Source: an uncultured Clostridia bacterium
GTDB taxonomy: Bacteria; Bacillota; Clostridia; Christensenellales; UBA1242
Assembly: GCA_944345365.1 (NCBI GenBank)
Contig: CALVMJ010000002.1
Coordinates: forward strand, 15,517 to 79,516
DNA length: 64,000 nt
Reading direction: 5' to 3'
The notes beneath the pieces are model-generated. The model was not told where the DNA came from. It saw only the letters and a list, made by a program, of their open reading frames with translations, and ran no database searches. This document shows positions 1,574-31,111 of the stretch, piece by piece. Numbering within the stretch: the first letter of the stretch is position 1; each line of letters begins with the position of its first letter. A program made the translations under genes and the position numbers.

Positions 1574-1597
1574 AAAGCAGGCTTGCCTGCTTTTTTG
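1574..1597 (+). terminator. Rho-independent terminator
   Basis: GCAGGC-tt-GCCTGC hairpin followed by T6. Confidence 0.8.
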
Positions 1598-1665
1598 ATT
1601 CTATCAAATCCTAAACAATAGTATAATCCTGGCATATTTAAGTTCATGAGTTCATATTATACAGT

Positions 1666-2388
1666 ATGAAGAAGATTTATTTTGGAGTTTATAAGTTTAG
1701 AAAAATTTTTGTTAATTTTTGCATCGTTTTGCTTCTTGGCATTATTACTGCTGTTGCATTTTTGGGTGGGAATGATTTACCTGTTTCAAACATAACAAAT
1801 GGTGTTTATTACAGTGGACAAAAAGAGGGGAACAAAGTTTCTTTAATGATCAACGTTTATTGGGGCGAGGAATACATCGAAGATATGCTTAATGTTTTCT
1901 CCGAAAAAGGGGTTAAAACAACTTTCTTTCTTGGTGGAATGTGGGTGCTTGAAAATGAAGATTTGGTTATGAAAATTTTAAACGATGGACACGAAATTGC
2001 AAATCATGGCTATAAGCATAAAAGTCAAGATAAAATCTCTTATGATGATGCAAAATTTGAAATAGAGACAACACATAATTTAATTGAAAAATTAACTAAC
2101 CAGCAAATGACACTTTTTGCGCCTCCAAGTGGAGCCTACAACGAGCAAACAGTGGAAGTGGCAAAAAGCCTTGGTTATAAAACCATTATGTGGACTAGAG
2201 ATACTATTGATTGGAGGGATCATAATACCCAATTAATTTATTCTAGAGCTATCAAAGATTTAAGTGCTGGGGATTTGATCTTAATGCATCCAACAGATGA
2301 AACATTACAAGCTCTTCCAAAGATAATTGATTTTGTCTTATCTCAAAATCTAATTGTTTCAACAGTGTCTAATTGCCTGTCAAATTAA
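1666..2388 (+). CDS. Polysaccharide deacetylase (NodB homology domain), YlxY/PdaB-like
   Basis: N-terminal membrane anchor plus NodB-type motifs (TFFLGGMW, HEIANHGYKH, TIMWTRDTIDW). It sits downstream of pnp, like Bacillus ylxY. Confidence 0.8.
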   Translation: MKKIYFGVYKFRKIFVNFCIVLLLGIITAVAFLGGNDLPVSNITNGVYYSGQKEGNKVSLMINVYWGEEYIEDMLNVFSEKGVKTTFFLGGMWVLENEDLVMKILNDGHEIANHGYKHKSQDKISYDDAKFEIETTHNLIEKLTNQQMTLFAPPSGAYNEQTVEVAKSLGYKTIMWTRDTIDWRDHNTQLIYSRAIKDLSAGDLILMHPTDETLQALPKIIDFVLSQNLIVSTVSNCLSN

Positions 2389-29204: not shown

Positions 29205-29233
29205 CCTCTCTTTTTATTATTTGCAAAGAGAGG
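29205..29233 (-). promoter_or_regulatory. 5'-UTR hairpin sequestering the uvsE Shine-Dalgarno
   Basis: Minus-strand RNA reads CCUCUCUUU-gcaaauaauaa-AAAGAGAGG-uuuuuu-AUG. This gives 9 perfect bp whose 3' arm is the SD. A TATAAT on the minus strand (29245-29240) would start transcription at the hairpin. Confidence 0.5.
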
Positions 29234-29511
29234 AATTTTATTATATTTCAAAATCAAGAAGGTAATTAATCCATTTTTCTTGATTATAATTACAAATTAA
29301 TTTCATAATGAATTTTTCTACTCCCTTAAAATTTTTTAATTAAGATAAGTTAATAAAGCTTTAGGGTGACTCGGTAAATGTATTCATGGGAAGAGTCACA
29401 AACCTGCCAGACGGACATCGAAGGGCTGGGCCGACTGCGAGAGTAGGTTCGCTTTGCGTGAAGCAAAGAAAAAGCACAGCTTTTTATCCTGTGCATCTTC
29501 GTTGTTTTTAC

Positions 29512-29532
29512 TGGCGGAGCACACAGGATTCG
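29512..29532 (-). other. Orphan 21-nt copy of the tRNA-Ser 3' end (T-loop to CCA), att-core-like
   Basis: tggcggagcacacaggattcg is identical to 29684-29704. Similarity to the tRNA stops there (gtgt versus aacc). Confidence 0.85.
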
Positions 29533-29633
29533 GTGTAGTGACTCGGTGAATATATTCACGGGAAGAGTCACAAACCTGCCAGACGGACATCGAAGGGTTG
29601 GGCCGACTGCGAGAGCAGGTTCGCTTTGCGAGA

Positions 29634-29666
29634 AGCAAAGAAAAAGCACAGCTTTTTATCCTGTGC
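29634..29666 (-). terminator. Terminator of tRNA-Ser (an identical second copy lies at 29462-29494)
   Basis: Minus strand reads GCACAG-gauaaaaag-CUGUGC followed by UUUUUCUUU, 17 nt after the CCA end. Confidence 0.75.
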
Positions 29667-29683
29667 ATCTTCGTTGTTTTTAC

Positions 29684-29772
29684 TGGCGGAGCACACAGGA
29701 TTCGAACCTGCGGTGCCTTGTTAGCACACCCGCTTTCCAAGCGAGCACATTAGACCACTCTGACAATGCTCC
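29684..29772 (-). tRNA. tRNA-Ser (anticodon GGA), CCA encoded
   Basis: Minus strand: GGAGCAU acceptor pairing with GUGCUCC-G-CCA. Anticodon stem CUCGC/GCGGG with loop UUGGAAA. Long variable arm GUGC..GCAC. T-arm GCAGG-UUCGAAU-CCUGU. Confidence 0.9.
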
Positions 29773-29783
29773 ACATAGGTTAT

Positions 29784-29811
29784 ATTTTACAAAAAAAAAT
29801 AAAAATGTCAA
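29784..29811 (-). promoter_or_regulatory. Promoter of tRNA-Ser
   Basis: Minus strand has TTGACA (29811-29806), a 16-nt T-rich spacer and TAAAAT (29789-29784), about 12 nt before the mature 5' end. Confidence 0.65.
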
Positions 29812-29899: not shown

Positions 29900-31111
29900 A
29901 TGAAGAGATTATTTAGGATAGGAGCTGGATTATTTTTTTATTCAATTATACCAATACTTTCTTGGCTTCTTTTAGCAATAATCTTAAATGACAGCAGAAT
30001 TTCAAATGCTTTTTCAATTACATATGCACTTCAATTTGTTTGGGCGATATTGGTATATTTGTTTGGAAGTGGAGCAAATATTTATAAGGAGAAGAAAAAA
30101 GATGATAATGCTGTTTGGAATAGTATATTTTGGGGGGTTATATTTTCTGTTGTAATTTTTTCAATACCTTTAATCTTCGTTGATAATTATATTGCATTTT
30201 TTGGTCAAGATGTAGAGTTTTACAGGATTTTTGTTATTTATAGTATCATTTTATTCTTTTTGCAAACCGTATTTTCAATTTTGATTCAAAAATTTTACTT
30301 TGAAGATAAAGAAAAAACAGCAAATCTTTATTTAATAATTTATAATTTATTAAATTTTAGTATATTAATTTTAACTTGCTTAATAACAAAAAAAGCTTGG
30401 ATAGGCATATTGGTGACGCTATTAATCTTGTTTATATATATTCTTTTCCTTTTTATCAAGGAATTTAAAAAATTTAAAATTAATTTTAAATTTATTTACA
30501 GTTTTAAATACGAATCAGCAAATATACTTTCTTCCATTTTTATGCTTTTGATATATTTATTTGGGTTTAAAAATGCATTTTCTGCAGGCCCTGAATATTT
30601 ACTTGCTTTAAACTTTGTCACTCTTTGTACTGATTCGCAGTGGGATTCATTAAAAGCAATTAGTATAACAACAAAGGTTGATATTTCAAAACAAAGATTA
30701 AAATATAATAAGCATTTGAAGGATTCATATATTTATTGTTTATGTATAATTGCTTTAAGTGTTGTTATGGTTTTTTCATTATTCAGTCTTTACGGAGTTG
30801 TTTTAGAAATTGCATTAATATATTTATCATTTAATGTGTTTGATATGTTCTTGCATCCATATAAAACATTAATAGAAATTTACACACAGCTAGAATATTC
30901 ATCTACAATTAATACTATTATTGCTTTGAGTTTAAAGTTTATCAGGTTTTTATTATCTATTCTAATTTTATCTCCATTTTGCACTGAATTTGGACAAGTT
31001 ACACAAGGAATACTAGGGTTTATTATTTATTTAATAATAAGATTAACTCTGTATAAAAATATTGAAGGAAAATTAAAAATAAAGAGTTTAAAAGCAAATA
31101 AAATCAAGTAA
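29900..31111 (+). CDS. Polytopic membrane protein (about 10-12 TM), possibly Wzx/MOP-type flippase-like
   Basis: 403 aa, very hydrophobic with short basic loops. Extremely AT-rich codons. The family assignment is a guess from topology only. Confidence 0.35.
   Translation: MKRLFRIGAGLFFYSIIPILSWLLLAIILNDSRISNAFSITYALQFVWAILVYLFGSGANIYKEKKKDDNAVWNSIFWGVIFSVVIFSIPLIFVDNYIAFFGQDVEFYRIFVIYSIILFFLQTVFSILIQKFYFEDKEKTANLYLIIYNLLNFSILILTCLITKKAWIGILVTLLILFIYILFLFIKEFKKFKINFKFIYSFKYESANILSSIFMLLIYLFGFKNAFSAGPEYLLALNFVTLCTDSQWDSLKAISITTKVDISKQRLKYNKHLKDSYIYCLCIIALSVVMVFSLFSLYGVVLEIALIYLSFNVFDMFLHPYKTLIEIYTQLEYSSTINTIIALSLKFIRFLLSILILSPFCTEFGQVTQGILGFIIYLIIRLTLYKNIEGKLKIKSLKANKIK

Follow-up and report, generated by a model that had tools for sequence, protein, structure and literature searches.

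A gene-less, 172-bp-period tandem repeat carrying a displaced tRNA-Ser(GGA) 3' end in an uncultured Clostridia bacterium

Genomic islands whose tyrosine integrases target tRNA and tmRNA genes reportedly include a class that uses sites in the T-stem and T-loop, as Williams is said to have set out in 2002. A regenerated tRNA gene accompanied by a displaced 3' fragment is the accepted signature of a tyrosine-integrase island, and in the Islander collection, which requires an integrase gene and applies a length filter, 1836 of 3919 islands occupy T-stem-region sites and tandem arrays are known (PMC4383910). The attP of Ms6 is described as lying in the T-loop of tRNA-Ala (PMC1762012). In Streptococcus salivarius, gene-less, att-bounded relics of cis-mobilizable elements, termed microCIMEs, span 130-220 bp and sometimes stand two in a row; the published examples lie at the 3' ends of the protein genes rpmG, rpsI, fda, and rplL, came to light solely in tandem arrays with an ICE or IME, and always stand farthest from the target gene in those arrays, the most decayed element being the outermost (PMC7563491).

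We analyzed a stretch of 64,000 nucleotides from an uncultured Clostridia bacterium (hereafter, the window), in which a 172-bp-period repeat adjoins the gene for tRNA-Ser(GGA). The locus shares with microCIMEs the absence of genes, the size class (172-bp period, 151-bp body), the direct repeats expected of att sites, the presence of two units in a row, and the distal position of the decayed copy. It differs from them in that the target is a tRNA T-loop and not the 3' end of a protein gene, that no ICE, IME, or integrase is present, that the outer copy is without a distal att site, and that part of the sequence and a predicted closed fold are conserved over two species-level clades. With the T-stem/T-loop islands of Islander it has in common a regenerated tRNA gene with a 3' fragment in the same orientation, a duplicated block running from the T-loop to the 3' end, and a tandem arrangement, whereas the interval in the window is ~150 bp long and holds neither integrase nor cargo (PMC4383910). 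The likeness to the ssrA-bounded tandem island arrays of Dehalococcoides lies in site-specific integration at the 3' end of a small structured-RNA gene, putative in our case, but the units described there are kilobase islands with integrases (PMC3146451).

The tRNA gene, its displaced 3' end, and the repeat

The only tRNA gene of the window, tRNA-Ser(GGA), was identified by ARAGORN on the minus strand at 29684-29772, with an encoded CCA end, and scored 42.8 bits against the Rfam tRNA model. A candidate promoter for it (TTGACA, 16-nt spacer, TAAAAT; minus strand, 29784-29811) was located in a consensus scan with 11 of 12 positions matching, and is a consensus match only. The last 21 nt of the tRNA, the proximal core (29684-29704, minus strand), recur exactly as an orphan core that runs from the T-loop CGAAT through CCA (29512-29532, minus strand). 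The corresponding 21-mer TGGCGGAGCACACAGGATTCG is antisense to the tRNA between T-loop C56 and CCA and has precisely two occurrences, 29512 and 29684, both on one strand, where 0 are expected; the intact gene and the orphan fragment named in the original prediction are thereby borne out. The block of identity, CGAAT-CCTGT-GTGCTCC-G-CCA, begins 2 nt into the T-loop and continues to the 3' end, a start within the 7-nt loop that is typical of integrase islands, as is the direct repeat formed by an intact gene and a displaced 3' fragment in the same orientation. The adjacent hairpin GCACAG/CTGTGC had been called a terminator. Its 6-bp stem is present, but that label needs qualifying: the hairpin is weak, with a 9-nt loop, it was missed by the terminator scan, and its bases can alternatively form the self-contained palindrome AAAAAGC-ACA-GCTTTTT.

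Tandem Repeats Finder reported a single array, at 29366-29704, with a period of 172 bp, 2.0 copies, 96% matches, and 0 indels. Direct base-by-base comparison resolved 2 copies of 167 bp each (29366-29532 and 29538-29704) that differ by 6 substitutions, and the two methods agree with the dimensions first described. The substitutions are at unit positions 11, 15, 22, 61, 79, and 94, within the first ~95 bp as had been noted, and the identical tail is 73 bp long where 72 bp had been counted. The copies are joined by the pentamer GTGTA (29533-29537, no strand; base comparison), for which sibling strains and the sister clade have GTGCA. No further copies of the unit were found elsewhere within the 64-kb window.

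Each unit carries three or four hairpins, with H1, H2, and H3 confirmed by sequence and hairpin analysis at the places predicted for them. In the tRNA-proximal module, copy 2 (29538-29683, no strand; sequence and fold analysis), whose body we call X, H1 (29538-29571), H2 (29573-29621), and H3 (29624-29640) are followed by the small palindrome AAAAAGCACAGCTTTTT (29641-29657), by ATCCTGTGC (29658-29666), and by a spacer (29667-29683); the fold z-scores of this copy are -2.4 for the plus strand and -4.0 for the minus strand. The distal module, copy 1 (29366-29511, no strand), has H1 at 29366-29399, H2 at 29401-29449, H3 at 29452-29468, the palindrome at 29469-29485, ATCCTGTGC at 29486-29494, and the spacer at 29495-29511. 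Its outer side has no core or pentamer, and its outer edge in the window coincides with the exact base of H1. Judged by its sequence, the distal copy is the more decayed of the two: with sibling strains as reference, 4 of the 5 polarisable substitutions are derived in copy 1 versus 1 in copy 2, and the substitutions in copy 1 weaken H1 and H2.

The open reading frames that span the unit are mechanical calls overlapping with the tRNA, and no credible one lies between the cores, in agreement with the earlier observation that neither integrase nor cargo is found there. A simple tandem duplication would join the unit end to the unit start with no foreign bases, but here a 5-bp filler intervenes, and the same filler is found in the second clade. 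GTGTA differs from TTAGG, upstream of copy 1, and from AACCT, downstream of copy 2; since neither the flank upstream nor the remainder of the tRNA matches the filler, a plain tandem duplication does not account for the repeat.

We searched for a parent element at several levels. No integrase, transposase, relaxase, or reverse transcriptase was identified between the cores or in the 38 window ORFs scanned against Pfam, and in ~20 related contigs there was no integrase, transposase, or relaxase beside the tRNA, where integrase islands hold the enzyme gene inside or adjacent. An ICE or IME of the same att specificity, as a microCIME origin would call for, was found in none of the window, the related contigs, plasmids, phages, and viral contigs. 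A phage or plasmid attP was rejected as the source, with BLASTN (distant mode) of the loci of both clades against phages and plasmids returning nothing relevant; a viral attP was likewise rejected, with pattern scans of viral contigs giving chance hits or a tRNA-Ser(TGA) of a jumbo phage only.

Sibling strains, a sister clade, and the surrounding locus

The order flank-unit-core-GTGYA-unit is present in the independent sibling assemblies L001, L121, and L124 (UvdE at least 96% identical), so the repeat is no assembly artefact. L001 appears to be this locus assembled a second time, identical outside gaps, and L121 and L124 carry SNPs of their own. Two scaffolds have N gaps inside the repeat (L001 at about 2408-2512, L121 at about 1217-1315; ENA), and their contig ends at the gaps overlap or abut, which fits two copies as far as assemblies, as distinct from reads, can tell; more than two copies hidden by assembly was rejected at this same assembly level. 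L117 has one unit versus two in its siblings, on a contig of 2x coverage that may be collapsed. Sibling strains read GTGCTTC and GTTGATTTTAC at places where both copies of the window carry GTGCATC and GTTGTTTTTAC, which we take as signs that the copies may evolve in concert within the window species.

The window species is not among the GTDB representatives, where its best UvdE match is L003, an uncultured Clostridia MAG (70% identical). Downstream of its own tRNA-Ser(GGA), L003 has a homologous module; the breakpoint of its orphan core is the one seen in the window, and its junction, TGGCGGAGCGCACAGGATTCG-GTGCA-GTGATC..., is near-identical. The blocks conserved between the clades comprise the core with GTGYAGTGA, TCACAAACCTG, CCGACTGCGARAGCAGGTTCGC, AAGCAAA, and ATCCTGTGC. 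Outside these blocks the clades are unalignable, yet hairpins stand at the same places, with H1 stems of GTGACTC/GAGTCAC in the window clade versus GTGATC/GATCAC in the sister clade and with unrelated inner stems. Relatives with a single, nonconserved spacer, the finding that would have spoken against the original prediction, were thus not what we saw, as module, hairpin layout, and junction are all retained in the sister clade. In the window, its siblings, and the sister clade, the core-GTGYA-GTGA-hairpin junction breaks the tRNA at the same nucleotide. This combination of tRNA nucleotide, 5-bp filler, and hairpin foot would have been either inherited by two species-level clades or remade by a site-specific process; since it is common to both clades, it did not arise by a recent random or local duplication.

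Among 11 sister-clade contigs, three haplotypes were distinguished. Haplotype D2 (L125, L126) consists of flank, small hairpin, four ATATCATT repeats, terminator, orphan core, GTGCA, full module, and tRNA; D1 (L003) is like D2 with longer repeats and a 39-bp partial extra module adjoining the flank; and in S (seven contigs) the flank is joined mid-H1 and the orphan core is absent. In D2, a single 177-bp unit lies between the intact tRNA and a terminator ~10 nt past the displaced CCA. When these 177 bp, core to core, were removed in silico from L125 and L126, tRNA-CCA was followed ~10 nt on by AAAAAGCC-GAGA-GGCTTTTTT, which would amount to a normal tRNA gene with its terminator, and X would thus behave as a discrete insert with 21-bp direct repeats. 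One hairpin that both clades have in full is missing its 5' half in haplotype S, whose junction falls between two TYGCAC microhomologies present in D2; S therefore looks derived, the orphan fragment having probably been lost by deletion. An empty site, in which the tRNA is followed by the terminator without X, was seen in neither clade.

The module is absent from three further lineages, L118-L120 (UvdE 65-67% identical), that have the tRNA. A scan of a metagenome collection for a 21-nt conserved block returned L003 itself, one S-type relative, and GC-rich chance hits, with no exact match outside this locus. L118, whose tRNA is at 1707-1794, has no module otherwise; ~40 nt downstream of that gene it shares 12 exactly matching nucleotides, CAACAGGTTTGT, with the place where H2 and H1 of the L003 module meet. 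The match is inverted relative to the tRNA and may be a last remnant or chance. The module-less L120 holds a 71-aa fragment of an rve domain (IS3-type transposase) at 590-805, ~3 kb from tRNA-Ser, which is the only mobile-element protein signature near this tRNA among the contigs examined. A separate observation concerns the 3' trailer of tRNA-Ser(GGA), which in three lineages contains 8-10 nt complementary to the T-stem 3' strand and the start of the acceptor of that same tRNA, a stretch that in the sense of the tRNA is (GC)ACAGGAT(T); the sites are at 29658-29666 and 29486-29494 in the window, at about 2268-2277 in L003, and at 3799-3806 in L120, where, with no module present, the site directly abuts the CCA.

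In the sister clade, the Gut-1 RNA motif (Rfam RF01706) matches the arrays of iterons and mini-hairpins beside the orphan core, at 1914-1991 (plus strand) and 2013-2085 (minus strand) of L003 and at 1574-1643 (minus strand) of L125, with scores of 51.7 (which exceeds the gathering score), 42, and 31.6 bits. The match is located just beyond the terminator after the displaced tRNA-Ser 3' end of an uncultured Clostridia MAG. Gut-1 was described from human-gut metagenomes only, without a known host or function (PMC2864571).

The near neighbors of the repeat are housekeeping genes, including mnmA, uvdE, and those for a nucleotidase, DegV, and HIT, with recA, miaA, scpA, pta-ackA, plsX, rnc, and ftsY farther away. 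Across the contigs compared, the tRNA locus is a hot spot of gain and loss; unrelated strain- or clade-specific genes of 403, 257, 360, and 133 aa flank the tRNA, and its orientation relative to uvdE flips between lineages. The 403-aa gene (29900-31111, plus strand), for a predicted membrane protein, lies between the tRNA promoter and the nucleotidase gene and is missing in sibling strains; in L121, the nucleotidase gene directly follows the tRNA promoter. The 257-aa gene lies between the repeat and uvdE and is intact in the siblings L117, L121, and L124; in the window, a 788-bp deletion has left its last 13 codons and stop, QEKWINYLLDFEI (29241-29282, minus strand). None of the four flanking proteins had a PADLOC hit or a significant Pfam hit, and type III toxin-antitoxin repeats or a defence context were rejected on these null results. 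Directly upstream of the uvdE start codon (29198, minus strand) there is a hairpin, CCTCTCTTT/AAAGAGAGG (29205-29233), which on the minus strand forms a terminator-like stem followed by U6, and its 3' arm holds the likely Shine-Dalgarno sequence GAGAGG; it could stop read-through from the tRNA and mask the uvdE ribosome-binding site. In the window, 51 of 56 gene-like ORFs are on the plus strand, and the tRNA and uvdE are among the few minus-strand features, against the presumed direction of replication.

T-arm pieces and a predicted closed fold

Past H1, the orphan tRNA piece resumes for 7 nt, AACCTGC (29573-29579), the antisense of the T-stem 5' strand, as identified by sequence reading and a short-match test; the orphan piece is therefore 28 nt long and interrupted in the T-loop. 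Downstream on the plus strand, GCAGGTTCG and (A)ATCCTGTG(C) together make up the sense T-arm, its loop interrupted by hairpins, and the module thus holds an inverted, interrupted copy of the T-arm. Shuffled sequences did equally well in the short-match test in 73/2000 and 39/2000 cases (one figure per clade), a modest significance, with the same pieces recovered in both clades; the half-sites GCAGGTTCG, (A)ATCCTGTG(C), and AACCTG(C) are kept in both. Given these pieces, core and module are predicted to fold, as DNA or RNA, into a closed multi-branch junction (29522-29665, no strand; MFE). Its closing stem forms between CACAGGAT, which belongs to the orphan core, and ATCCTGTG (29658-29665), and surrounds H1, H2, H3, and the small palindrome, and in the predicted fold this stem and the outer stem of H2 (AACCTGC/GCAGGTT) jointly spell both strands of the T-arm. 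The closed fold of the window is in the MFE structure both as DNA (z -5.3) and as minus-strand RNA (z -4.2), and L003 has an equal architecture (z -4.5 and -4.6).

Where the lineages differ, each has a self-contained palindrome of its own, AAAAAGCACAGCTTTTT for the window and CCAGACGAATGTCTGG for L003; because such palindromes can come from DNA template switching, apparently compensatory changes are no proof of RNA. Compensatory evolution of H3 between the clades was rejected, as another alignment pairs H3 of the window with H4 of L003 and leaves the remainder as insertions of self-contained palindromes, and RNAalifold detected no compensatory pairs in the MAFFT alignment. Covariation of the junction pentamer with an acceptor-stem base (GTGTA/CACAC versus GTGCA/CGCAC) was also rejected, as sibling strains pair GTGCA with a CACAC core. 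A G-U pair in H2 had been read as the sign of a plus-strand transcript, but over all variants 5 wobbles favour the plus strand and 3 the minus strand, so wobbles are uninformative as a strand indicator and that reading was abandoned. We dropped the idea that X descends from a second, decayed tRNA, as in local alignment with positions 1-60 of the tRNA the X of the window did no better than shuffles and that of L003 was marginal, with 29/1000 shuffles equal.

Integron attC sites and the attP of CTX-phi are recombination sites folded from single strands, in which an imperfect long palindrome extrudes hairpins and the rebuilt duplex mimics the chromosomal target. The fold of core and module, which by predicted folding only rebuilds both T-arm halves, resembles these sites without belonging to them: the attC core motif (GTTRRRY/RYYYAAC) and a dif-like XerCD site are absent, and neither an integron nor a phage surrounds it.

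Origin of the repeat and its meaning

With moderate confidence, we read the units as gene-less, att-bounded relics of the microCIME type, accreted in tandem and left by an integrative element that targeted the tRNA T-loop, the outer copy being without its far end. This reading is favoured because the period is 172 bp, genes are absent, the cores act as boundaries, and the distal copy is the most decayed, and because D2 presents a discrete insert. Also in its favour are the block of identity from T-loop to CCA, the junction common to both clades, and the turnover of flanking genes and of tRNA orientation at the locus. By the measure of published microCIMEs (gene-less, 130-220 bp, an att site on both sides), copy 2 has a 151-bp body between two cores and copy 1 has a core on one side only. 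A tyrosine-integrase element specific for the T-loop would have inserted with its own copy of the tRNA 3' end, keeping the gene intact and displacing the original 21 nt; it would then have shrunk to little beyond its two att arms, fused back to back. Re-integration or unequal exchange between the cores would have added the second copy, and the outer, older one would have lost its far att end through deletion. For the single insert of the L125 type, excision would be expected to yield a circle junction ...GATCACTGCAC-core-TTTTTTTATTCAT and an empty site GCAGGTT-core-AGCAAAAG.

We infer an integrase origin of the repeat, and the conserved T-arm-like blocks and hairpins would then represent the architecture of a recombination site, with putative binding sites for a recombinase that recognizes the T-arm; the half-sites of the module appear to be arranged as expected for the core-type sites of a recombinase. 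Three options had been offered at the outset, namely a scar, a miniature element using the att core, and a structured RNA; comparison favours the first two, which are really one, a gene-less att-bounded relic, and it leaves the third less probable. Against the relic reading, a distal copy that ends exactly at the foot of H1 would need an extra deletion landing on the element edge, and the conservation of 11-22-nt blocks and a closed fold amid unalignable intergenic DNA suggests ongoing constraint over a dead scar. The searches that turned up no integrase, parent element, cognate attP, or empty site also weigh against it, as do the streptococcal origin, the protein-gene targets, and the ICE or IME company of the published microCIMEs.

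An ancient local duplication is a less likely alternative. A single replication-based event in the common ancestor (template switch or MMBIR, leaving the 5-bp filler) would have copied the tRNA 3' end together with a native, hairpin-rich flank, gene conversion or unequal crossing-over would have kept the copies alike, and the module would be nothing other than the conserved 3' flank of the tRNA, with no site-specific recombinase involved. The distal copy of the window clade meets an unrelated flank without an outer core, as expected of a native module; L003 retains a 39-bp partial second module adjoining its flank; and the signs of concerted evolution in the window (GTGCATC and GTTGTTTTTAC in both copies) and the finding of an integrase nowhere point the same way. 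L125 and L126, however, have one module and yet an orphan core followed by a terminator and Gut-1-like repeats, so the distal module would have to have been replaced with its 21-nt core kept. Moreover, the chance of a random break falling in the 7-nt T-loop, to give exactly the integrase-typical block from T-loop to CCA, is ~8%, and an unselected 172-bp tandem repeat is not expected to outlast ~30% protein divergence.

Somewhat less probable again is an undescribed structured RNA linked to the tRNA, with the closed multi-hairpin fold as its functional form. It would be either read-through from the tRNA promoter ending in a second tRNA-like 3' end, CGAAUCCUGUGUGCUCCGCCA, or an antisense RNA with 21 nt complementary to the tRNA 3' end. 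The unit has a GC content of 49% versus 32% for the window and the genome, in both clades either strand gives a significantly stable fold, the hairpin layout is retained despite differing stem sequences, and the 22-nt block CCGACTGCGARAGCAGGTTCGC bears a GNRA loop on the plus strand; the terminator past the orphan CCA in L125 and L003 means that tRNA, X, and core could be one transcription unit. These features are countered by the family search, as cmscan of the unit at E up to 10 returned the tRNA only, other overlaps being at chance level (E above 4), and the L003 and L125 modules had no Rfam match at the same limit, with Gut-1 present only in the neighboring repeats; the known RNA family that would have explained the repeat away is hence absent as well. 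In addition, a weak terminator (window) or a U8 run (L003) directly follows the tRNA ahead of the X body, no convincing plus-strand promoter was found and L003 and L125 have a bidirectional terminator just upstream, in the majority of sister-clade strains half of H1 is gone together with the orphan core, wobble pairs favour no strand, and RNAalifold counted zero compensatory pairs. Perfect palindromes with 2-nt centres and lineage-specific palindromes are equally typical of template switching at the DNA level.

We give only a slim chance to X being still at work, whether as a miniature integrative element or as a structured nucleic acid tied to the tRNA, and conserved in structure more than in sequence. 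A single strand of ~170 nt would then take the form of a closed five-way junction in which two interrupted half-copies reconstitute the T-arm duplex, and the folded att site would mimic the tRNA target, in the manner of integron attC or CTX-phi attP, and be mobilised in trans by a recombinase encoded elsewhere. A miniature transposon, either an IS200/IS605-like, palindrome-associated element inserting 3' of TTCG on one strand or another MITE, is very improbable, for although three independent plus-strand breakpoints lie right after TTCG (core|GTGYA, GCAGGTTCG|hairpin, and CTTCTTCG| in L003), subterminal hairpins are present, and all events are on the would-be lagging-strand template as judged from gene orientation, there are no dispersed copies (none further in 64 kb, no exact metagenome match of the 21-nt block beyond this locus), such elements make no 21-bp duplication, TnpA/TnpB were not seen, and every TTCG site derives from the T-loop, so that T-arm pieces may be all that the pattern reflects.

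Returning to the microCIME-type reading, the feature is most likely a real but fairly ordinary genomic scar, and its T-arm-mimicking fold would be the only part of wider interest, and that only if functional. Units of this kind have practical consequences, as 172-bp tandem repeats disrupt short-read metagenome assemblies (N gaps in two scaffolds) and can pass for small RNAs. If the relic reading is true, gene-less micro-relics of integrative elements would not be limited to the ICE/IME arrays of streptococci; they would escape island finders that demand an integrase, and they would also persist alone at tRNA genes of uncultured gut or environmental Clostridia over long evolutionary times.
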